Source: a virus (Duplodnaviria > Caudoviricetes). From it: a DNA stretch of 64,000 nt. Below are positions 5,437-50,074 of this stretch, piece by piece. Under the pieces are notes generated by a model. It saw only the letters and a list, made by a program, of their open reading frames with translations, searched no databases and was not told the origin of the DNA. A program made the translations under genes and the position numbers. The stretch lies in the IMG/VR virus record IMGVR_UViG_3300027740_000003, positions 352,001 to 416,000 of that record; one strand, 5' to 3'. Numbering within the stretch: position 1 is the stretch's first letter; each line of letters begins with the position of its first letter.

Positions 5437-6285
5437 TTATATACCTATGGTTTTTAACACTTTAGTTTTAAGATCATCTAAAGTTCCATTATTTTCAACC
5501 ACATAATCCCAGGGCGAATTCGGATCATTTGTCTTGTATTTGTTTAAATCGTTTTCGCTTATATGATCTAAATTTGGTCCGGCAGGCAGTTTTTCTACAG
5601 GTCTAACTATTAATAATATTTTCCCGCCATTTGATCTGATACAACTTATTTCATTAAAAAACCTTACATCACTAAATACAACGTTTTCCGTCCTATAATT
5701 TTTAGCTAGATTTTGTGGTTCTGAAACTCCTTTAATTTGATTATATCGAGAATACGCTTTTCCTATATACCTTTCTTCTGGTCCAGAATAAAATTTAGGT
5801 TGTACATAAACGTATTCATGAGGAACGCCGTCTATTAATTGTTTTGCAATATTCATTGCGAAATTGGCCCAAGTATCAGTATAACAGTCTCTGCCCCAAT
5901 CTGTCCCAAGCTGTTGTATTGCATATCTTGGTGTAAGATAACATTGTGGTATTTCTGCATTATGCTTTATAATTTCATATCCGCAACATTTGCATTTTCT
6001 AAACTCATTAAATGAATGTTCTCTTGGATACCTTTTATCTAATTCATTTCTTTTTTCTGACGGTCCCCATAATTGATCTTCAGAAAATCCATAAACTTTT
6101 ACACAAATTCTTTTTATTTCATCTGCCAAAGTAATTTTTGTGAACCTATATTGTTCAACCAAAATATCTGTTGCTTTATCTTTTCCTGTGCCCATAGAAC
6201 ACATATTACCATTTGGGTCAACAGATCTTCCTATAATACCAAGAATCATATCCAATCCTCCGGAATTTTTTCTGGGAAATACCAC
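5437..6285 (-). CDS. deoxynucleoside monophosphate kinase (T4 gp1-like) with insertions
   Basis: P-loop-like GIIG...GTGKD, TPRYAIQQLGTDWGRD, FSDVRFFNE, HISE, VENNGTLDDL. Confidence 0.85.
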   Translation of the reverse strand: MVFPRKNSGGLDMILGIIGRSVDPNGNMCSMGTGKDKATDILVEQYRFTKITLADEIKRICVKVYGFSEDQLWGPSEKRNELDKRYPREHSFNEFRKCKCCGYEIIKHNAEIPQCYLTPRYAIQQLGTDWGRDCYTDTWANFAMNIAKQLIDGVPHEYVYVQPKFYSGPEERYIGKAYSRYNQIKGVSEPQNLAKNYRTENVVFSDVRFFNEISCIRSNGGKILLIVRPVEKLPAGPNLDHISENDLNKYKTNDPNSPWDYVVENNGTLDDLKTKVLKTIGI

Positions 6286-6599
6286 CTAACTGGTTTACCT
6301 GTCCTAACAGCATGTTTTATCTCTCTTCTTGTACTTTCGCCAATATAACCATCTTTATTTATAACAAGGATTTCGCCTGCCAAATCTATTTTTTGAAGAT
6401 GTAGTTTGTCCAGCATCTCTTTCTGTTCATCAGAGCATCCAACGTGTTGGCCGTGTGTTTTTTCTGAAGAATGCATGAAAAAACCAACAGAAAGAACTAT
6501 ATTCCCCAGCATAGTTTCTTCATAATTAGCCTTCATAAAATCTTCATAGAACTTAGTCGAACCGCACAAACAAACTATTTTTGGTTTCTTTTCTATCAT
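6246..6599 (-). CDS. nucleoside 2-deoxyribosyltransferase-like (NDT/DUF4406-type) protein
   Basis: IVCLCGSTKF...HLQKIDLAGEILVINKDGYIGESTRREI. Confidence 0.6.
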   Translation of the reverse strand: MIEKKPKIVCLCGSTKFYEDFMKANYEETMLGNIVLSVGFFMHSSEKTHGQHVGCSDEQKEMLDKLHLQKIDLAGEILVINKDGYIGESTRREIKHAVRTGKPVRWYFPEKIPEDWI

Positions 6600-8749
6600 A
6601 TGTTCACCAATTTACCTGTTGCCCCGTCGCTATCTTTCTCGACCACAATTGCATAATTAAATTTATCCTTCAGCCTGTTGTCATGAGTTATAACAAGAAT
6701 TTTATACTTTTTCTGATATTTTTTCACAATTTCAACAAAAGCATCTTTTCCTTCTTCATCCAAAGGTTGATCTATTTCGTCAAACTCTAGTAATTTAATA
6801 TCTACAGAAAGCCTGTTATAAATTACTTTTGACATTCCTAAACGTAAAGCAAATGAAATATATGCCTTCTGTCCTCCAGAAAGCTGATTATATTCTAATT
6901 CCACCCCATTGTCATTATAAGAAATATCAAGTATATCTTTGTCTTCTTTTTCAATAAGAAATCTTAAAGATAGTTCTGGCCTTATATCTTGAAGTATTTT
7001 ATTCGCTTCTAATTGAAGATCGTCTAGAATAGTATGTATAATCATTGTTGGTATTCCAGAAGAAGAAAATGCTTTAACTACTCTGGACCATTTTCTTACA
7101 CCATTTTCTAAACCTACCAACTGACCATTTAATATTTCTAATTGACAATAATCATCTTCTTTTTTTCTTTTTCTCTCATCTAAAATACCTTTTTGCGTAC
7201 TATTATTAGAAAGATCTTTTATTAATTTATTGTCCTGATCTTCTGCAACTATAATATTTTGCTTTATTTTTACAAGTTCAGAATTTATATCAGCAAAATT
7301 GAACTTTTCAGCTTTCTTATTTAGTTCCTTTTCTTGTTTTTCCAAATCTAATAAATCATTAGAACACACCTTAACATCATTTAAAAGCTTTTTCGCTAAT
7401 TCTTCAACTTTGTTTAGGTATTGCTTGTTCTGATCTATTTTTGTTTCAATAGAAGATACAACAGATTCTAGTTGTTTTACTTGATGTTTATGTTCCAATA
7501 TAACATTCTTCTCAGAATTAAAACCAGTTCTCTTAGTATGTAATGTTGTAAGTTTCTTTTTAGAAATCTCTAGTTGTTTTTGAGCTTCTTCCGCCTTTTT
7601 TGCGTTTTCTTTTGAAACTTTTTCTCTATATTCATCATTAAGTTCATTAAAACACACCTCACATTCTGCTCCTGTTGGCAGAACTTTACTCCATTTGTTA
7701 TAATTTACTTGAATTGATGCTACATATTCATTTCCTTTCTTTATTTTTGTATCAACTTCTTCTACATCTTTTTGTATTTCCGTTTCTTCTCTTATCTTTT
7801 TCTCTAATAAATTTTTATATTTAGATTTATTTTCTTCTAAAGATTTGTTTAACTCAACAATTTGAGAGTTATATTTATTTATTTCGTTTTTATATTGTAA
7901 AGCTTGTTGTTGCAGCCTTACAATGGCATCTTTTTTATTTTTCTTTTGATTATTTATTTCAACAATCTTTTCAGATATCTTTGCATCATCAGATGATAAT
8001 AAATTTTCTAGTTCAGAACATTTTTTTCTATTTTCTTCTAACAGTTTCTTTATTTGCTGCCTGTTATTTTCAGTTGTCTTTATAAAATTTTCTATATCTT
8101 TAGAAGCTGTATCAATAGCTTTGATATCTTCTTGTGGATTTCCTAAAGTATCAATAATGGTTTTTATTTTATTATATTCTTTTTCTACTTCGGAGTGTTT
8201 TACTTTAGCAGTTTTCTCAAATTTAGAATAAATAGCAAGAGAAAGAGGCTCTTTGAACAAATCTCTTCTCTTTCCTTCCGTTGCTTCCGCTATTTCAGAA
8301 AATGATCCTTGAGAAAACAAAACAGAATTAGTAAATGATTTATAGTTTATTTTTATTAAATCTTTTATATCTTCTTCCATTTGAGAAGAAGTTCTAGTGT
8401 CATCTTTTTTCCACTCACCGTTATCTAAATGTTTAAGAAGAACTTCTTTGGTTGTTTTATTATTTCTTTTCCTAGAAATCTGCCAATCTATACCGTCTTG
8501 TTCAAATTCATAAATTACTTCACATATTTTCTGACCATTTTTAACAAGTTTGCTTACTGATTTTAAATTGGTTTCATTAAATAAAACCCAAGATATGGCG
8601 TCATATATTGTTGTTTTGCCTGTAGCGTTAGATTTTCTTGGATTAGATTTATATTGACCAATAATAAGACAAGAATCAAATTTAGAAAAATCAATAATTG
8701 TCTCTTTATGGCCTTTAAAGTTCCTTATTATTAATTTTTTTGGTAGCAT
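6596..8749 (-). CDS. sbcC: SbcC/Rad50 SMC-like ATPase
   Basis: Walker A SNATGKTT, long coiled coil with CEVC zinc hook, signature LSGGQ, Walker B FDEID, H-loop VITHD. Confidence 0.93.
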   Translation of the reverse strand: MLPKKLIIRNFKGHKETIIDFSKFDSCLIIGQYKSNPRKSNATGKTTIYDAISWVLFNETNLKSVSKLVKNGQKICEVIYEFEQDGIDWQISRKRNNKTTKEVLLKHLDNGEWKKDDTRTSSQMEEDIKDLIKINYKSFTNSVLFSQGSFSEIAEATEGKRRDLFKEPLSLAIYSKFEKTAKVKHSEVEKEYNKIKTIIDTLGNPQEDIKAIDTASKDIENFIKTTENNRQQIKKLLEENRKKCSELENLLSSDDAKISEKIVEINNQKKNKKDAIVRLQQQALQYKNEINKYNSQIVELNKSLEENKSKYKNLLEKKIREETEIQKDVEEVDTKIKKGNEYVASIQVNYNKWSKVLPTGAECEVCFNELNDEYREKVSKENAKKAEEAQKQLEISKKKLTTLHTKRTGFNSEKNVILEHKHQVKQLESVVSSIETKIDQNKQYLNKVEELAKKLLNDVKVCSNDLLDLEKQEKELNKKAEKFNFADINSELVKIKQNIIVAEDQDNKLIKDLSNNSTQKGILDERKRKKEDDYCQLEILNGQLVGLENGVRKWSRVVKAFSSSGIPTMIIHTILDDLQLEANKILQDIRPELSLRFLIEKEDKDILDISYNDNGVELEYNQLSGGQKAYISFALRLGMSKVIYNRLSVDIKLLEFDEIDQPLDEEGKDAFVEIVKKYQKKYKILVITHDNRLKDKFNYAIVVEKDSDGATGKLVNI

Positions 8750-9303
8750 TATTTAACCAATGAGTGAAAAACTTCTAAAAACATCTTTTCTGCTTGCTTT
8801 TGAGTCCAAGGTTCTATTTTAGACTTTAAAGGTTTTACATTAAAATTAATATGATTATTATTCATCAAATCTCTTATCTCAGTAGCTCTAACAATAAGGT
8901 CATATTTTAAAACTTCTTCTGGCTCTTTTTCTGGCAATCCGTACTTTTTGCATATACATTTAAGAACTTTATCCTCCATTATTTTATAAGCTAGCAATTC
9001 CATTTTTATTGGTGCTGGCAAATCAGATACATATGCTTCTGCTGAATCATGCAGTAAACCCCATAACCTATTCTTTTTTGAACATTCAGCAGCAACCCTA
9101 ACACAATGCTCAGCAACTGATGAAAATATATCCAAATGTCCATTAAACCTACACTGCATTGATAAAGAATGAGCAATATCTATTATATTTATCTCGTCTT
9201 CTCTCGGATCCATGGGCCAAAAAGTAATGCCCGTATAAGTTATTATAGCTCTGCCTTTTCTAACTTTATCTTTAAAACCATTTATGTCTTTAGCTGTGTT
9301 CAT
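8749..9303 (-). CDS. HD-domain 5'-deoxynucleotidase (YfbR-like)
   Basis: DIAHSLSMQCRFNGH, SVAEHC, LLHDSAEAYVSDLPAPIK. Confidence 0.85.
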   Translation of the reverse strand: MNTAKDINGFKDKVRKGRAIITYTGITFWPMDPREDEINIIDIAHSLSMQCRFNGHLDIFSSVAEHCVRVAAECSKKNRLWGLLHDSAEAYVSDLPAPIKMELLAYKIMEDKVLKCICKKYGLPEKEPEEVLKYDLIVRATEIRDLMNNNHINFNVKPLKSKIEPWTQKQAEKMFLEVFHSLVK

Positions 9304-10447
9304 TTACCACCTCAATGCAAGCAGAAATAAACTCATCCCGTTCATCATCAGGAAAGTCCTGTTTGCTAGCCCAGAGTTTTACTGCCGCTTTAGGCTCTAT
9401 AGCTTGCCACTCTTCTTGTTTATCATCAGATATTATTCTGCTAGACCTGGACTCAGAAAAACCACTCACATAATAAGCTCCTAATTTATATAATCTATTT
9501 ACTATCTTATCTCTGTCTATTTCAACAGCATTAGGATCAATTAGTTTTATTTCAATTTTAACAATTGCATCATTAAATGATTGTTTATTTATTTCATTTA
9601 ATAAACAATCTGTTGGATTTTCTTCTTTTGGAATATCTAAACGAATCCTTTTTAAAGGCCTTGTTGGTAATTTTATTTCCTCAAAACCATCACTATCAAA
9701 TAAAACAACAACCTTTTCTTGTTCGGTTTCGCCAAAATCTGAAATATCAATACTTCCTATATGAGCAATATAAGGTTTCTTGCTAAAAACTTGAGGTTTA
9801 TGCACATGTCCCATCCAAACATAATCATATCCTTCAAAAGAAGGAAGCGGCACCATTATTTCATTAGTAAGATCGTCTATTTCATCTGTCCAAAATGATT
9901 TTTCTATAGCCAAATGACCAATAAGAACCTTTGTTTTTGATATTGATGTTGATTCAAAAGACAATAATATATTAATTTTATCTATTGCCTCATCTATTGT
10001 ATTAGCATCTAACGATCTTCTGTCCCTAAATGGAAAAAATGTAAAACTCGCATCCTCAGTATGCAAAGTATACACCCTATTATAGATAAAAATGTTCTCT
10101 AATTCGGCAGCTTCAATAATGTTTAATATTGAGGTATATCTGTTTCCTATACGCTTAAGATCATGATTGCCAAAAATTATATGAACATCAAGCCCGTAAT
10201 CTTGACAATGCTTTAACCAATCCATAAAAATAACGACCATATTGGCGTCTGGTTTCAACTCATCAAAAACATCTCCAGTAATAATAATTCTCGAAGCATC
10301 TTTAGAAATAGCTAAGTCTAAACACCAATTAAGCAGCCTAATTTGATCGGCCAGCCTGCTATTTAAAGATCCGTCAATAGATGGTCTGCCAATAGACAGG
10401 CCTTTTCCTAAATGAAGGTCTCCAACTATTAATGTTCTATCTGCCAT
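9290..10447 (-). CDS. sbcD: SbcD/Mre11 metallophosphoesterase nuclease
   Basis: GDLHLG, TGDVFD, GNHD, GHL, GHVHKPQ motifs; near sbcC. Confidence 0.92.
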   Translation of the reverse strand: MADRTLIVGDLHLGKGLSIGRPSIDGSLNSRLADQIRLLNWCLDLAISKDASRIIITGDVFDELKPDANMVVIFMDWLKHCQDYGLDVHIIFGNHDLKRIGNRYTSILNIIEAAELENIFIYNRVYTLHTEDASFTFFPFRDRRSLDANTIDEAIDKINILLSFESTSISKTKVLIGHLAIEKSFWTDEIDDLTNEIMVPLPSFEGYDYVWMGHVHKPQVFSKKPYIAHIGSIDISDFGETEQEKVVVLFDSDGFEEIKLPTRPLKRIRLDIPKEENPTDCLLNEINKQSFNDAIVKIEIKLIDPNAVEIDRDKIVNRLYKLGAYYVSGFSESRSSRIISDDKQEEWQAIEPKAAVKLWASKQDFPDDERDEFISACIEVVNEHS

Positions 10448-39009: not shown

Positions 39010-39260
39010 TCTATAATATCCTTTATCATCATATCTACACACGTATAATTATTTATACTTTTACCATTATACATATACCACCACTGTTTTCCTTTGGAAG
39101 TTAAAGGTCTTAAAAAATCCTCAGCATTATCTAAAACAACTACACAAATTAGTTTGCATTTGCTACATACATAATACGTATAATATATTCCTTCAAAATG
39201 AAAATCAAAATTATGATCTTTCTTTGCCCCGTCCGGTAATGGAAATTTGTTCTCAGTCAT
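39006..39260 (-). CDS. IKDIIE-tail small protein (class B)
   Basis: KKDHNF...CSKC...YTCVDMMIKDIIE*. Confidence 0.88.
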   Translation of the reverse strand: MTENKFPLPDGAKKDHNFDFHFEGIYYTYYVCSKCKLICVVVLDNAEDFLRPLTSKGKQWWYMYNGKSINNYTCVDMMIKDIIE

Positions 39261-39727
39261 TCTATAATATCTTTTATAGCCAAATTATCTAATATTTCTT
39301 GTTCGTATTCTGTATTTATTAAATATTTAGCGCAAAAAACAACTATTTCTTCATCATATTTAGATTCATTTATAGCTAACATGCATAGTTCTTTGGACGG
39401 TTTTCTTATCCATATAATTGCTCTAGGATAGTTTTTAATAATTTCCATTTTGTATTCTTCAGAAAGGTTTGCCGTATCAACATTAGTTAATATGGATTCA
39501 TTTGTACTACCTATCGCATAAAGAATAACTTCAAGCGACGGTTCTTCTATATGAAATAGAGAATCTTCATCATTTTCCACTGCCACTTTTTGTAATCTAA
39601 TTGTTTGTTGTTCTTTAGGAAGAAAATAAATATTATAAGGGTTGTCTTTAATCATTGATAATATTTGTTTTTTATTTTTTGGATCATATTCTATCGTTTT
39701 AACAATAAGATCATTTAAAGATTTCAT
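39257..39727 (-). CDS. IKDIIE-tail protein with short helical repeats (class D, DUF4116-like)
   Basis: Repeats IKDNPYNIYFL / VENDEDSLFHIEEPSLEVILYAI / IKNYPRAIIWIRKPSKELCMLAI; ends LAIKDIIE*. Confidence 0.85.
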   Translation of the reverse strand: MKSLNDLIVKTIEYDPKNKKQILSMIKDNPYNIYFLPKEQQTIRLQKVAVENDEDSLFHIEEPSLEVILYAIGSTNESILTNVDTANLSEEYKMEIIKNYPRAIIWIRKPSKELCMLAINESKYDEEIVVFCAKYLINTEYEQEILDNLAIKDIIE

Positions 39728-44814: not shown

Positions 44815-45295
44815 AATAATCTTCTAGCTCTTTTTCAGCAATTTCTTTTTCTGTTTTAAAATACTCTTTTACTTTATTTATTATAACATCAGATATCCCA
44901 TATATAACAAATTTTTCTTGCCAATCCTTATCAGGTCTATCACCATAACTACTAGCTTCACCGACAGTAAGACAACAAGGATTAGAATAAACCTTAAATC
45001 CATCTATTTCCAGATATGGCCAAACTTCAACAGGGGAATCACCACAACAACCACAATCATGTCCAATTTCACATTTGTCCACCAATGAATTGACAGATTT
45101 AGAATACCACCTTTCTCTTTTCCACCGATTGGTATGTTTTTTAAGATCAGGATATAAAACTGCTAATTTTCTTAGCTCGGCCATTTTATTTAATATTAGC
45201 GACGCCTCTTTCTTTAATAATTCTATTTGATAATCTATACATAATAATCTTTCTTGTTCCGCTAAGAATTCATCTTGTTCTTCTTTAGTTCTCAT
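44801..45295 (-). CDS. hypothetical protein (CGCCG motif)
   Basis: 164-aa ORF. Confidence 0.7.
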   Translation of the reverse strand: MRTKEEQDEFLAEQERLLCIDYQIELLKKEASLILNKMAELRKLAVLYPDLKKHTNRWKRERWYSKSVNSLVDKCEIGHDCGCCGDSPVEVWPYLEIDGFKVYSNPCCLTVGEASSYGDRPDKDWQEKFVIYGISDVIINKVKEYFKTEKEIAEKELEDYYGDK

Positions 45296-46191
45296 AACAA
45301 ATTCCTGTTCTTTTCAATTATTTGTTGAATGTCTCTTAATGCCTGGACGGCCTTGTCTGGATTAACAATTGCATCGGAAAGAGATCCGTAATGTTCTTCA
45401 AGGCAGTTCAAAAGGAGTTGTTTTATAGCGCCTTCATCTGGAGAGTGGCGCAGGGTAGATTCTTCGTAAAGTTTATCTAGATACTTCTCTTTCTGGGAGA
45501 ACCATTCGTTTATATCTTCCATGGACTTTTCTCCTCGACGAACGGCTTTTAGAATTTCTCTATTTCTTTCGAGGTCAAGATCTCCTTCTAGAAGAATTTG
45601 CTCTGCTTGCATGGCCAGCCGCAGAACGTGATAGGCGAATTTTGTTTCTAGTCCGTACTTTTCTACGTTTGCCGCCCTCTTTGATCCGGGCTGATATCCT
45701 TCTATTTTCATTTTATGTAATTGTGAAAATGAGTATCCGATGTACTTTTGTTTCGCCCCCCGATGAAGGAACATCTTTCTTTTTTCTCTAATCATTTGTC
45801 CAATACGAGTAATATGCAATACGCATCTTTCTGGAACAAATAAAGAGTCAATCATGTTTGGATTATTCTCCATACATAATTGAAAGTATTTAACAATACT
45901 ATACACAGAACAATCATATTCTTTTCCTTTATCCGGATCTTTAATATGATGTTCTTGATATTGTTCAAATCTTTTTATTTGATTTCCGAATCCGGGAATT
46001 TCTCCACGAAGATGGGGAAAAATCATATCTTTTGGAGGGATACAGAATCCATAGATATCGATATCACTATCATTGGAAGAAACACCATAAGCCTCTGATC
46101 CCATAATGACTTCGTAATGAATATTAGAAGGAAGCCATTGTGGCGGATGAATAATCTGATTTTGAGCTAATCTTGATACTACACTTGGCAT
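45292..46191 (-). CDS. Pol-beta-superfamily nucleotidyltransferase (YcgL/RlaP-like)
   Basis: GSEAYGVSSNDSDIDIYG, ENNPNMIDSLF, KFAYHVLRL. Confidence 0.85.
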   Translation of the reverse strand: MPSVVSRLAQNQIIHPPQWLPSNIHYEVIMGSEAYGVSSNDSDIDIYGFCIPPKDMIFPHLRGEIPGFGNQIKRFEQYQEHHIKDPDKGKEYDCSVYSIVKYFQLCMENNPNMIDSLFVPERCVLHITRIGQMIREKRKMFLHRGAKQKYIGYSFSQLHKMKIEGYQPGSKRAANVEKYGLETKFAYHVLRLAMQAEQILLEGDLDLERNREILKAVRRGEKSMEDINEWFSQKEKYLDKLYEESTLRHSPDEGAIKQLLLNCLEEHYGSLSDAIVNPDKAVQALRDIQQIIEKNRNLL

Positions 46192-46202
46192 TTTATTATT
46201 CC

Positions 46203-46502
46203 TTATTCTATTATATCTTTTATCATTAACTCGTTTTTAGATAATACAAATATTTCTGCATCCTCAGAAAGTACCGCCAACATAATTTCTTCCGGAAAAT
46301 CTTCGTTAAAAGCTATATATATTTTATAACTATTATTAAAGTTTTGAGAGATATGTTCTTTAATACAATCTCTAATTTCAACTTCAAGACAGAAACTTTT
46401 AAATTTTGGCCAGTGAAGCCAACTCATTTTACCATTATTATAACTAATATAGAATCGTTCTCCAGATTTAATACATAAAGTTTTACACCCAACACATCCC
46501 AT
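46203..46502 (-). CDS. IKDIIE-tail small protein (class A)
   Basis: GCKTLCIKSGE...LSKNELMIKDIIE*. Confidence 0.88.
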   Translation of the reverse strand: MGCVGCKTLCIKSGERFYISYNNGKMSWLHWPKFKSFCLEVEIRDCIKEHISQNFNNSYKIYIAFNEDFPEEIMLAVLSEDAEIFVLSKNELMIKDIIE

Positions 46503-46786
46503 TATTCTATTATATCCTTAATTATCATCTCTTCTTTGGAAAGAATTTTAACACAATTTATATATTGTTCTTCAATAAAATAACCTAGAAATAAACAATC
46601 TTGAAAAAAACAAACTAATGAATAAAAATCTTCTTTTTTAGAATTAAAATCATTAAACCAATATCCGCATGTGGAAAAATCAACTTTGTTTACATCGTCT
46701 CCTGTTTTATACAGCTTTTTTATATTAGATAAGTATACTCCCTCTCCTTCTTTCAAAATAATAACTTTATGTCCTATACAAGGCAT
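46502..46786 (-). CDS. IKDIIE-tail small protein (class A)
   Basis: GHKVIILKEGE...LSKEEMIIKDIIE*. Confidence 0.88.
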   Translation of the reverse strand: MPCIGHKVIILKEGEGVYLSNIKKLYKTGDDVNKVDFSTCGYWFNDFNSKKEDFYSLVCFFQDCLFLGYFIEEQYINCVKILSKEEMIIKDIIE

Positions 46787-47154
46787 TATTCTATTATATC
46801 CTTAATTATCATTTCATCTTCTGACAATATTTTATATCTTGTATCAGACCATTCTGATACAACAAACATTGAATATGCCCCATCTTCCCAATTTACAATA
46901 ACCATTTTAGGATCCAAACAATTCAATTTTGCAATTTCCTCAAATACACATAACATAGTTTCATAATACCAATTATACGAAACGCTATTAGTATATATTT
47001 TATTAGGATAAAATATATCGTTTTTCGTAATAGTTCCACCGACTTTGTTTTTAATATTTAAAAATTTACACATCCCCGACATTGATAAATCAAACATAAT
47101 ATCATTATGATTAAGATCAAAAACAACCTCCCATTGAGATTCCTTCTTGGCCAT
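46786..47154 (-). CDS. IKDIIE-tail small protein (class A-like)
   Basis: MVIVNWEDG...LSEDEMIIKDIIE*. Confidence 0.88.
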   Translation of the reverse strand: MAKKESQWEVVFDLNHNDIMFDLSMSGMCKFLNIKNKVGGTITKNDIFYPNKIYTNSVSYNWYYETMLCVFEEIAKLNCLDPKMVIVNWEDGAYSMFVVSEWSDTRYKILSEDEMIIKDIIE

Positions 47155-47432
47155 TATTCTATAATGTCCTTAATCATCATTTCATCTTCGGTAAGAATTA
47201 CTATTTTTTCCCAATCATATGCTATAATAAAATTGTAATAATTTTTCCACATAAAAGTATATATTATTGTAGGATCGGGCAAAGTTTGAAACCCTTTATA
47301 TATATCTTTATAATTCACATGTTGGTTATAACCAAGCCTTTTATTAAACAAACGTATATATTTTTTATTACCATGCACAATAAAACCTTCATCTCCATCA
47401 TTCATAATAACAGTTTTACAAGCAATAATCAT
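47154..47432 (-). CDS. IKDIIE-tail small protein (class A)
   Basis: ACKTVIMNDGDE...LTEDEMMIKDIIE*. Confidence 0.88.
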   Translation of the reverse strand: MIIACKTVIMNDGDEGFIVHGNKKYIRLFNKRLGYNQHVNYKDIYKGFQTLPDPTIIYTFMWKNYYNFIIAYDWEKIVILTEDEMMIKDIIE

Positions 47433-47712
47433 TCAATGATGTCCTTTATCATTATTTCGTCTTCAGTAAGAATTTGAATCATTTCTATTTGATTTGGTTT
47501 TAAAAAACCACAAGTATAACAGCCATCATCATAAAAAATTATATACGACATCACTTCTTCGTCTTTATTTAAACCCCATTAATCCATTGAGTATAGTGCT
47601 TAAAAACATCTTCTAAAAATGGGGATTTATTAAGCCATCCATTGCCTAAATAACCACTACAACGTGCTAGCTTTCCTCCTTTAACATAAAATGTTTTATG
47701 ACCAACCAACAT
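47429..47712 (-). pseudogene. frameshifted IKDIIE-tail gene, recent duplicate of 48464-48748
   Basis: MLVGHKTFYVKGGKLARCSGYLGNGWLNKSPFLEDVFKHY then 1-nt loss in T-run (A3 at 47571-47573 vs A4 at 48606-48609); other frame continues ...QILTEDEIMIKDIIE*. Confidence 0.85.
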
Positions 47713-48011
47713 TATTCAATGATGTCCTTTATCATTAAATCATCTTCGGTAAGAATTATATATTTTAAATATTTAGAGTGTACCACCAATAAATAAGAAC
47801 CTTCTTCCCAAAACACATTTAAAAATATTAAACTCAGATTATATAACTCTCTACTATGAATCCAAATTTTATTTTCTCGGAAAAATTTTGAATCACCCTC
47901 TCTAATTTCATGTGGATTTTTAACGATTGACGGTTCGTCTGAAGGAAGACTACGATCAATAAATAAACACTGATCGTCTTTTAAAACAATTGTTTTAAAC
48001 TCAAAATCCAT
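47712..48011 (-). CDS. IKDIIE-tail small protein (class A)
   Basis: MDFEFKTIVLKDD...LTEDDLMIKDIIE*. Confidence 0.88.
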   Translation of the reverse strand: MDFEFKTIVLKDDQCLFIDRSLPSDEPSIVKNPHEIREGDSKFFRENKIWIHSRELYNLSLIFLNVFWEEGSYLLVVHSKYLKYIILTEDDLMIKDIIE

Positions 48012-48012
48012 A

Positions 48013-48288
48013 TTATTCAATGATATCTTTAATTATCAAATCGTCTTCGGTAAGAATGTTTATTTTATCAAGTCGTTCTAAAGGAACAATTCCGGCACTG
48101 CAAAAACCATCATCATAGAAAATGAAATACAAAACCTCCGAACAATCTATATGGCGCTGTTCTATTATTTTATTTATAAACTGAAAAGTATCCGAAAAAT
48201 CACTCTTCACAATGTCAAGATTTTCATCTGAAAAATAAGCCCGCTTTGCTCCTTTTACATATTCAAATGCTTTAACATTATAATTCAC
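48013..48288 (-). CDS. IKDIIE-tail small protein (class A)
   Basis: GTGA-coupled start; YFIFYDDG...LTEDDLIIKDIIE*. Confidence 0.88.
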   Translation of the reverse strand: MNYNVKAFEYVKGAKRAYFSDENLDIVKSDFSDTFQFINKIIEQRHIDCSEVLYFIFYDDGFCSAGIVPLERLDKINILTEDDLIIKDIIE

Positions 48289-48467
48289 TTGTTTTTGTCC
48301 CACTCTCTCTTAACAATCTCTCTAATAAATTCTTTTGAAATATGAGAGTCCTCAATTGCCAAATTGCCATAAACAAATGATACGGCTTGCTCAAACCTTT
48401 CTTCATCAGTCATTTTATAATCTTTAACTGATTCAAGCAATTCTTTAAGCTCTTTAGACATCGTCAT
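48285..48467 (-). CDS. small protein without tail embedded in the array
   Basis: 60 aa, coupled on both sides. Confidence 0.7.
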   Translation of the reverse strand: MTMSKELKELLESVKDYKMTDEERFEQAVSFVYGNLAIEDSHISKEFIREIVKREWDKNK

Positions 48468-48748
48468 TCTATTATATCCTTAATCATTAAGTCGTCTTCG
48501 GTAAGAATTTGCATCATTTTTATTTGATTTAGTGTTAAAAATCCATTAGTATAATAACCGTCATCATAAAAAATTATATACGACATCATTTCTTCATCTC
48601 CATTTAAAACCACTTCAATCCAATGATTATAGTGCTTAAAAACATCTTCTAAAAATGGGGATTTAATAAACCACCCATCACCAAAATAACCACTACAACG
48701 TGCTAATTTTCCTCCCTTAACATAAAATGTTTTATGACCAACCAACAT
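48464..48748 (-). CDS. IKDIIE-tail small protein (class A)
   Basis: MLVGHKTFYVKGG...YIIFYDDG...LTEDDLMIKDIIE*. Confidence 0.9.
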   Translation of the reverse strand: MLVGHKTFYVKGGKLARCSGYFGDGWFIKSPFLEDVFKHYNHWIEVVLNGDEEMMSYIIFYDDGYYTNGFLTLNQIKMMQILTEDDLMIKDIIE

Positions 48749-49023
48749 TATTCAATAATATCCTTTATCATTATTTCGTCTTCAGTGAGAATTTGTAATG
48801 AATCCAGCATTTCCTCAGAAAGAAAACCAGAACCCACTTTACCATCTTCAAAAAAAATTATATATGATATAAACTCTTCGGTTTGAGACAAAATATGCTT
48901 CATCCTATTTGCATAAAACTTCAATGTTTCTTGAGTATTTTCCTTAATAATTTTAAACTTAGCAGGCCCAACGTAAGCCTCTTTGCCATCTTTAACATAA
49001 AATGTTTTATGACCAACCAACAT
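48748..49023 (-). CDS. IKDIIE-tail small protein (class A)
   Basis: MLVGHKTFYVKDG...YIIFFEDG...LTEDEIMIKDIIE*. Confidence 0.9.
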   Translation of the reverse strand: MLVGHKTFYVKDGKEAYVGPAKFKIIKENTQETLKFYANRMKHILSQTEEFISYIIFFEDGKVGSGFLSEEMLDSLQILTEDEIMIKDIIE

Positions 49024-49301
49024 TATTCAATAATGTCCTTAATCATTAAATCATCATCAGTCAATACATAAATGTTAGTTTCTCTGTTAGAAAAATATCT
49101 ATAATCAACATTACCTTCGGGCCAGAAAATTGTTAAAAATAAAAAACAATAATTATCTTTTTTATTTAATGCTTTAATAGCATTATCACAACACCAATTC
49201 CTTTCCTCACTATTATTACGTAATTCCTTATTAAAATTAAATAGATGATCTCCTTCCTTTAAAACAATTACTTTATAGTTAAATTCATCTGGGGCTTCCA
49301 T
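49023..49301 (-). CDS. IKDIIE-tail small protein (class A)
   Basis: NYKVIVLKEGD...TIFWPEG...LTDDDLMIKDIIE*. Confidence 0.9.
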   Translation of the reverse strand: MEAPDEFNYKVIVLKEGDHLFNFNKELRNNSEERNWCCDNAIKALNKKDNYCFLFLTIFWPEGNVDYRYFSNRETNIYVLTDDDLMIKDIIE

Positions 49302-50074
49302 TTGTCTTCACCCTTCCACCCGCCAAAAACATACCCTCGATCCTTATAACCATTCCCGCTAGCGTTGTCAATAAGCCGAATTGAACAATTCCCCGGCCCT
49401 CTCTCTTCCTCAAACCACTCATATCTATAATGCAACCATGTCATCGTAAATAACCTAGATACAGTTCCGTGGCAAACAATTATATGGTCTTGAATTCCTT
49501 GCTCCTCATCCCGGTTCAATGTTCCATTAAATTGTCTCAACCTACAACATACATCAAATGCACTCTCCCCCATCGGGTATCTGGCCCAAAATTTTCCATT
49601 TGCCTCTTTCTGCCTCATAAAACATTCGTTCTCACCAGGGAATTTACTCTGCTGTTCCTCATCACTTAATCCATCAAATAACCCAAATTGCTGCTCGCAT
49701 AACAACACATCCTCCCTGGTGTCTTTAATATTCTCCCCAATCAATCCTCCAATTATTGAGGCAGTTTCCCTGGCTCTTCGATATGGAGAGTTCCACAATC
49801 TAGACTTATACATCTCGTTCTTTATTTTATTAATATCTTGTCCTTGTTGTCCAGCAAGACTCATTATTGTTCCAAACAAATTCTCAGCCAACGCATTTTG
49901 CATAACTATTGCTGGAGGATGATCTTTCAGGAATTTATTTAAAAATTGTCCAGCTGCTTGTGCTTGTTCCATTCCCCGATTAGAAAGAGGAATATCGTGG
50001 TCTGGAGCGGATTTGTGCAAATTTTGATTTGCGTTCGCTTCTGATTCACCATGTCTAATTAGAAATATTCTCAT
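49268..50074 (-). CDS. histidine phosphatase (phosphoglycerate mutase family)
   Basis: RHGESEAN, SPYRRARET, EQQFG, GES, VCHG. Confidence 0.92.
   Translation of the reverse strand: MRIFLIRHGESEANANQNLHKSAPDHDIPLSNRGMEQAQAAGQFLNKFLKDHPPAIVMQNALAENLFGTIMSLAGQQGQDINKIKNEMYKSRLWNSPYRRARETASIIGGLIGENIKDTREDVLLCEQQFGLFDGLSDEEQQSKFPGENECFMRQKEANGKFWARYPMGESAFDVCCRLRQFNGTLNRDEEQGIQDHIIVCHGTVSRLFTMTWLHYRYEWFEEERGPGNCSIRLIDNASGNGYKDRGYVFGGWKGEDKWKPQMNLTIK

Follow-up and report, generated by a model that had tools for sequence, protein, structure and literature searches.

The IMG/VR record IMGVR_UViG_3300027740_000003 is a single 435,004-bp soil phage contig with 35% G+C, of which we analysed bases 352001–416000 (the window, 64,000 nucleotides; positions below are those of the window unless given as genome positions). 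The minus strand of the window carries, at 46203–49301 (3,099 nt), an array of nine intact small genes that share a C-terminal peptide, here called the tail, together with a frameshifted member, F, split into two open reading frame (ORF) pieces, and an untailed 60-aa gene, u60. The array is probably an old, lineage-restricted tandem family with slow turnover, in which one later duplication produced the pair F and H and F has since been broken. The original prediction, made from the letters alone, had described a gene accordion in which repeated unequal crossing-over in the tails drives the birth and death of genes. Its description of the content holds, with ten tailed ORFs (nine intact genes and the 3′ piece of F) tightly packed around u60, but we do not think that the array is an accordion.

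Under our reading, alpha/beta proteins of ~92 residues would have arisen by ancient tandem duplication and been kept as distinct paralogues in the phage and its relatives. Their genes would form one coupled block, each ending in a shared C-terminal helix (L-[ST]-x-x-E, then h-M-I-K-D-I-I-E), with bodies that diverge several times faster than a neighbouring nucleotidyltransferase (NTase) and a first beta-strand and tail that stay constrained. The F/H duplication would be specific to this lineage and would have passed mostly under purifying selection, with F gaining its 1-nt frameshift later. Three perfect 40-nt repeats (40-mers) in the array would combine the invariant tail end, the TAATG overlap and codons 1–11 of the H/I subfamily, and their DNA identity may be kept by short-tract gene conversion. 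The proteins may be variable “heads”, all brought to a single partner by the tail that they have in common, and their fast divergence may reflect interaction with host targets.

Age and distribution of the paralogues

The age of the family is seen most clearly from relatives outside this genome. An exhaustive profile search of 1.84 billion protein representatives gave 18 matches, 11 of them external, and word-indexed searches gave 12 and 18. Seven of the nine intact genes have their nearest relative outside this genome, among them gene B (46502–46786, 94 aa) with P0017. We built a maximum-likelihood tree of 24 bodies, leaving out P0014, P0023 and P0025–P0029, in which genes of this genome do not cluster by origin: 9 changes are needed between own and external labels, versus 8.0 for shuffled labels. 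At a bootstrap of at least 90, external proteins are the partners of five of the nine intact genes, namely E (47712–48020) with P0015 (100/100), D (47154–47432, 92 aa) with P0012 (95/89), I (48748–49023, 91 aa) with P0013 (92/94), A (46203–46502, 99 aa) with P0018 (91/82) and C (46786–47154, 122 aa, with a longer N-terminus) with P0024 (90/78). The only sister pair within the genome is F and H (99/95). Because five intact genes pair externally and only F and H pair within the genome, we regard the paralogues as old, and the phylogeny that the original prediction had suggested as a check argues against a recent amplification.

The idea of an accordion, in the sense of near-identical tandem copies, fares no better at the level of sequence identity, as even the closest pair, F and H, is only 87.4% identical in nucleotides. 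Genome-wide, among 90 tailed genes, no pair reaches 80% amino-acid identity in the body. The broader idea of birth and death survives in part: there are tandem paralogues, a birth (the F/H duplication) and a death (the frameshift in F), but the supposed tempo does not hold, since turnover is slow.

With the tail removed, BLASTP relates the bodies to one another (H–I E = 4e-17, G–I 8e-9, G–H 7e-8, B–I 4e-6, E–J 7e-4), although the A–B and A–D matches are confined to the N-terminus, and body pairs other than F/H are at most 42% identical in amino acids. The motif traces noticed earlier, [HC]-K-[TV] near the N-terminus and a pre-tail F-[YW]-x-[DE]-G, are real. All 11 matches of a body-only profile fall in the array (the nine intact genes and both F pieces) and none elsewhere in the 435 kb, and a six-frame search with the tail included scored at least 61 bits in the array only and no more than 28 bits in the rest of the genome. 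The body family is absent from five complete records of related megaphages, whose sole match was to the tail only, which argues that the family is restricted to a lineage.

Other routes to relatives returned little. No IKDIIE-type tail was present at 80 IMG/VR loci with an NTase homologue (mostly at most 62% identical), the histidine phosphatase that flanks the array found no relative when used as a synteny anchor in IMG/VR, and nothing matched when metagenomes were scanned with the H/I alignment or P0024, or IMG/VR with P0024 or P0017. Run X3, a groundwater sample of another study, contains ~160-nt pieces at 95–97% identity, which show only that a near relative exists. In IMG/VR, a 131,451-nt contig of another phage has tandem small ORFs at 6004–9930 (locus L160) with weak profile similarity to the family (E = 0.003 to 0.3) and row endings IKDIIE/IKDLID, and locus L111 has one member at 1604–1915 (E = 2.8e-5).

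Neither known families nor known folds match the array proteins. None of the ten reaches a Pfam cut-off (the best are DUF7135 at 17.7 bits, cut-off 27, and Tudor_5 at 16.9 bits, cut-off 31), and none matches PHROG at E ≤ 0.01. An AlphaFold2 model of H, built from a 13-row alignment (pLDDT 88.1, pTM 0.78), predicts a body of six strands and two helices, one helix between strands three and four and a short one before the last strand, with the tail forming a helix of its own at low confidence. Structural relatives of this model were found neither by Foldseek on the PDB (best E = 1.0) nor by a wide VIA-align search (best Z = 3.4), and the ESM Atlas, whose own model of H is poor, gave no usable feature match.

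The F/H duplicate and its frameshift

F consists of a 5′ untailed piece (47569–47712, 47 aa) and a 3′ tailed piece (47429–47554, 40–41 aa), and its intact sister H lies at 48464–48748 (94 aa). The two are identical at 249 of 285 nucleotides (87.4%) and differ by one 1-nt indel. This indel had been described as a deletion in a T-run; a single 1-nt indel is indeed what is found, but the T-run is one of several equally parsimonious placements, since the deletion in F relative to H can be put anywhere in about 47566–47580. In the model of H, the site falls in a predicted loop between the first helix (33–48) and the fourth strand (54–61). Of the 32 differences, 14 are synonymous and 18 non-synonymous, giving a synonymous divergence (dS) of 0.366, a non-synonymous divergence (dN) of 0.087 and a ratio (omega) of 0.24. 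A binomial test rejects omega = 1 (P = 7e-4) and, marginally, omega = 0.6, the value for one copy neutral throughout (P = 0.03). At this identity, with dS about 0.37 and omega about 0.24, F is not the “fresh” duplicate that had been supposed. Because the F/H differences show purifying selection, the break in F is either recent relative to the duplication or tolerated.

The frameshift itself appears to be real. A Logan contig of the probable source run, at about 25x word depth, covers 45800–47621 and reproduces the sequence without a single difference or gap, and the truncated ORFs of F, including the 40-aa one, are identical in the JGI, ENA and Logan gene calls; this agreement argues that the frameshift is not an assembler artefact, with the caveat that a single sample may underlie all these data. 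That F is in truth intact and the frameshift an error of sequencing or assembly is a very remote prospect. The indel does sit beside short homopolymers and the assemblies may share their sample, but the homopolymer runs are only 3–4 nt long.

A frameshifted gene is not necessarily a dead one, and it is conceivable, though improbable, that F is still functional, with the 47-aa and 40-aa pieces both made and reassembling, or with the frameshift bypassed in expression. The low dN/dS in both halves (0.26 and 0.20), with no further stop or indel, would fit such a gene, as would a break in a predicted loop and a 3′ piece that starts GTG-ATG behind a purine-rich stretch. However, a recent frameshift would yield the same statistics, the counts are small at 32 differences, and inspection of the sequence at the site revealed no canonical slippery heptamer. 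We retain the reading of F as a later duplicate that has since been broken.

Fast bodies beside a conserved flank

The array is flanked downstream by a gene for an RlaP-like NTase (45292–46191; Pfam PF10127, E = 3.5e-21), which serves as a conserved anchor, and upstream by a histidine phosphatase gene (49268–50074; PF00300, E = 2.3e-26). The NTase is identical to its cluster mate P0032 at 270 of 299 residues (90%), with the array-proximal half nearly invariant. P0032 is encoded on a 3,678-nt contig, and a contig of that size also encodes the A-type P0018, the D-like P0025 and the H-like P0027; gene A and P0018 are identical at 51 of 100 positions. Across nine orthologue pairs, the bodies are 55% identical (398/722) and the 13-residue tails 73.5% (86/117). 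The earlier expectation of host-interaction genes fits this pattern of fast body divergence against a neighbouring housekeeping-type gene and of a fixed tail.

Such a family would be a clean example of small-gene evolution in huge phages, which hold hundreds of small genes of obscure role: the tail and the first strand would be fixed, the bodies would evolve at about five times the rate of the adjacent enzyme, and only now and then would a duplicate arise or be lost. The array also offers nine diverged natural variants on one scaffold, which would be useful for finding the binding target of the tail.

The tail as a peptide

The tail makes up the last 13 codons of each member. All ten tailed array ORFs end h-I-K-D-I-I-E after a capping-box-like L-[ST]-x-x-E, and the window has 19 ORFs with IKDIIE-type endings and the genome 90, of which 73 are strict. 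Beneath this invariant peptide the codons vary synonymously (AAG 14 and AAA 5; GAT 13 and GAC 6; ATA, ATT or ATC for isoleucine), as do the stops (TAA 13 and TGA 6), and this variation argues that the tail is selected as a peptide. Genome-wide, 51 of the 90 tails end GAA-TGA, which contains ATG by construction, 13 run into TAATG and three end GTGA, so that the last tail codon and the stop often provide the overlapping start of the gene that follows. A 6-bp hairpin between the tail end and TAATG is possible as well where the codons are ATT-ATT.

Tails of this kind are not confined to the array family. A second tailed family in the genome ends ...E-I-x-D-N-h-x-I-K-D-I-I-E and is dispersed over at least 10 sites with 68–85% nucleotide identity (genome 118050–188553 and 340506–342041; window 39257–39727), which contrasts with the strictly local array family. 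In IMG/VR, the strict form of the tail pattern (class A) occurs in 0 stretches and its core in at least 103; among the loci read, seven have at least two tailed ORFs and nine have one. A complete related megaphage, on one 458,729-bp IMG/VR contig (loci L085, L086, L118, L122 and L148), has several small ORFs with tail variants, I-[KR]-E-[IV]-I-E after L/E-[ST]-C-x-E, so that the tag drifts between lineages. Two IMG/VR loci around NTase homologues are without the IKDIIE tail and have endings of their own, with four ORFs ending KLRWG in L003 and three ending LLRFG in L073; these may be different lineage-specific tags.

The perfect 40-mers

The 40-mers lie where the tail end of E meets the start of F (47681–47720), where that of I meets H (48717–48756) and where that of J meets I (48992–49031). 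They are perfect, as originally described, and these are the only three copies in the whole 435-kb genome. Their 38-nt core had 0 matches in 100 shuffles, and no other tail stop in the genome is crossed by a perfect repeat of at least 30 nt. Each 40-mer is made up of 8 nt of the upstream tail (ATT GAA TA), an A shared with the ATG, and 31–32 nt in which F, H or I begins, up to codon 11. The claim that the repeat spans tail codons and the start of the next gene is thus right on both counts, but the tail contributes only 8 of the 40 nt. Outside the window, the genome has a perfect 452-nt direct repeat (genome 21917–22368 and 22505–22956, copies 588 nt apart).

The repeat had been taken as a junction scar of recombination in the tail, and we do not find this convincing, as it is mainly the N-terminus of the H/I subfamily, whose protein sequence relatives preserve there. 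M-L-[VI]-G-H-K-T-F-Y-V-K persists in external H/I-type proteins that are only ~55–65% identical overall, so that most of the identity of the 40-mers can be put down to purifying selection on these 11 residues. In addition, I departs from H abruptly after codon 11–12, which places the visible breakpoint inside the gene.

Selection on the protein may nevertheless not account for all of the DNA identity. It is possible, if rather doubtful, that the 40-mers reflect recent short-tract gene conversion of the junction among F, H and I, beyond amino-acid conservation. The abrupt loss of similarity between I and H follows 40 identical nucleotides, and F and H differ by 12.6% overall and at 0 of 40 nt in the 40-mer. 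Between H and I, codons at identical residues agree at 9 of 10 sites in the first 11 codons versus 13 of 23 mid-gene. Judged by codon usage alone, at least 9 of 10 identical codons have P = 0.007, and 10 of 10 would have P = 5e-4, but against the empirical rate (13/23) P is only 0.03, and Fisher's test gives P = 0.05. Nucleotide selection on the initiation region is a further possible cause of the identity, although the predicted RNA folds of the three junctions are inconsistent (z = -2.5, -0.5 and -2.0).

Possible exchange through the tail and other points against an old array

Several observations weigh against our reading of an old array with slow turnover. Several branches of the tree are long or weakly supported (J/P0016, B/P0017 and G), and orthology rests on proteins of short contigs (P0008–P0028, on contigs of 5,870, 3,678, 3,467, 1,347, 708 and 575 nt) whose co-location is inferred from equal contig sizes only. 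On the contigs of the relative, P0010, P0026, P0027 and P0028, which represent one gene, are 91–99% identical to one another, P0008 and P0009 68%, and P0022 and P0025 73%; such a spread may mean that turnover or the exchange of alleles is greater than the word “slow” implies. The codon-identity excess at the 5′ ends is marginal, and no match in Pfam, PHROG, Foldseek, VIA-align or the ESM Atlas points to a function. Finally, the tails share longer runs than expected and the F/H duplicate ends exactly at gene boundaries. The excess of long runs is a weak signal, but both observations fit an exchange of tails better than duplication at purely random places.

The rival that they support is that the tail, alone or together with the conserved beginning of the following gene, provides the homology for repeated unequal crossing-over, so that entire genes would be duplicated, lost and rearranged scarlessly in an array that is still expanding and contracting. 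We consider this unlikely, although several observations speak for it. The similarity of the F/H unit ends at the stop codon on one side and within the upstream tail on the other, and both copies have perfect overlapping stop/start junctions with no leftover fragments. Exact runs of 24–27 nt are shared by three pairs of array tails (the neighbours B–C and E–F, and F–I), where 0.435 would be expected under a null that keeps residues and column-specific codon usage (P = 0.0145). The tail of F matches those of E and I better than that of its sister H, with which it shares a run of 8 nt. We considered the F tail as a recombinant of I and E, but the informative sites are too few and a three-taxon test was not significant. 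The perfect 40-mers are direct repeats, 275 and 1,036 nt apart, and exchange between them would be expected to delete or duplicate 275, 1,036 or 1,311 nt and to leave strains that differ in the order of whole genes. Gene order provides another hint, as D-type and I-type orthologues both occur on a 575-nt contig and would be adjacent in that relative if this is one contig; here five genes separate D and I. Analogous mechanisms have been described for the lpl paralogues (PMC2568036) and for PeSL cassettes (PMC2839356).

Against continuing exchange stand, first, the ages given above: most intact paralogues are nearest to external proteins, five of the nine pair with one in the tree at strong support, the youngest pair has a dS of 0.37, and the genome has no tailed pair with closely similar bodies. 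Second, the tails are not homogenised. Codons are identical at 278 of 498 comparisons among array tails (55.8%), versus 52.5% for the tails of unrelated genes genome-wide, and exact in-register nucleotide runs between array tails have a median of 10 and a maximum of 27. Third, the family never left the array, and the sharp F/H/I breakpoint lies inside the gene after codon 11 and not in the tail. Fourth, no variant joint of the array was seen in assembled contigs, which break at the 40-mers. This comparison covers three runs, all as assembled Logan contigs, of which X2 and X3 leave parts of the array uncovered, and the joints listed in these contigs, with sides of 20–36 nt, trace to tails in other parts of the genome. 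On balance, an old family with slow turnover and a single later duplication remains our preferred reading.

Packing of the array

In the order of transcription the genes are J, I, H, u60, G, E, F (two pieces), D, C, B and A, and overlaps between array genes are 1–4 nt. J (49023–49301, 92 aa) begins within the histidine phosphatase gene, which its start overlaps by 34 nt. The overlap is TAATG at six junctions (J/I, I/H, E/F, D/C, C/B and B/A) and ATGA at two (H/u60 and F/D). The remaining two depend on start codons that we assign from the sequence. G (48013–48303) most likely starts at its sixth codon, a GTG at 48288, giving a protein of 91 aa and a GTGA overlap with u60, and for E the likeliest start is the ATG at 48011, one base past the stop of G, which gives 99 aa. 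The gene u60 (48285–48467), between H and G, is unrelated to the family; it is a singleton in its 90% cluster and has no Pfam match below E = 0.05. Promoter-like sites are not enriched in the array (37, versus 36.3 in shuffles), and no terminator-like site lies at any array junction. Given the overlapping junctions, the chance level of promoter-like sites and the lack of junction terminators, the array looks like one translationally coupled unit.

Comparison with known systems

A search of the literature for paralogue arrays in huge phages surfaced only unrelated work, and the closest parallels are drawn from other systems. The internal proteins of phage T4 carry an N-terminal capsid-targeting sequence that is cleaved by the prohead protease, and they are encoded at a variable locus. 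Similarly to the array, a fixed short address peptide is borne by diverse, fast-evolving small proteins encoded side by side; in T4 the signal is N-terminal and cleaved, whereas the tag of the array is C-terminal. A search with PF03420, the T4-type prohead protease, had no match in the genome nor in any control genome, and as the control failed in every control genome, this search is uninformative.

Gene accordions were reportedly described in poxviruses by Elde et al. in 2012, and csa1 of Staphylococcus aureus is another case (Belikova et al. 2020, PMC7360770). They consist of near-identical tandem copies that change in number quickly within populations. The array resembles such accordions of host-interaction genes in being made of tandem copies. 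It differs in that its closest copies are 87% identical with a dS of 0.37, and most of its other paralogues predate the split from relatives.

A nearer likeness is found in the lpl genes of S. aureus, tandem diverged lipoprotein paralogues with a presumed role in host interaction, in which a block conserved in every ORF is the proposed site of recombination (Tsuru & Kobayashi 2008, PMC2568036). Both systems consist of diverged tandem paralogues, and in lpl, too, a conserved unit reaches from the 3′ end of an ORF into the 5′ end of its neighbour. In lpl, however, the block is central, ORF halves are shuffled and phylogenies are incongruent across many genomes, whereas here we have the array of one genome, conservation falls on the final 13 codons, intergenic spacers are absent, and the 40-mer is found at three junctions only. 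Because the block is terminal and without a spacer, an exchange here would move whole genes and leave no incongruence within ORFs.

Whole-gene movement is also what is proposed for the PeSL cassettes of T4-type phages, intergenic elements of a promoter and a stem-loop that are thought to mediate the insertion, deletion and replacement of genes (Arbiol et al. 2010, PMC2839356). In both cases a short conserved element sits where genes meet, and the setting is a plastic region of a large phage that is rich in small genes with little-known function. The array differs in having no intergenic DNA and only chance levels of promoter-like sites, and its conserved element is coding and selected as a peptide. 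Since the tail abuts the next start through TAATG or ATGA, exchange within it could duplicate, delete or swap a complete, tagged and coupled gene without a scar. The address tail may therefore double as an evolvability device, one that targets the proteins and at the same time makes their repertoire modular; we hold this to be a speculative proposal and an unlikely one, much as for continuing exchange itself. If true, it would make the tail the coding counterpart of the PeSL cassettes and of the conserved region of lpl.

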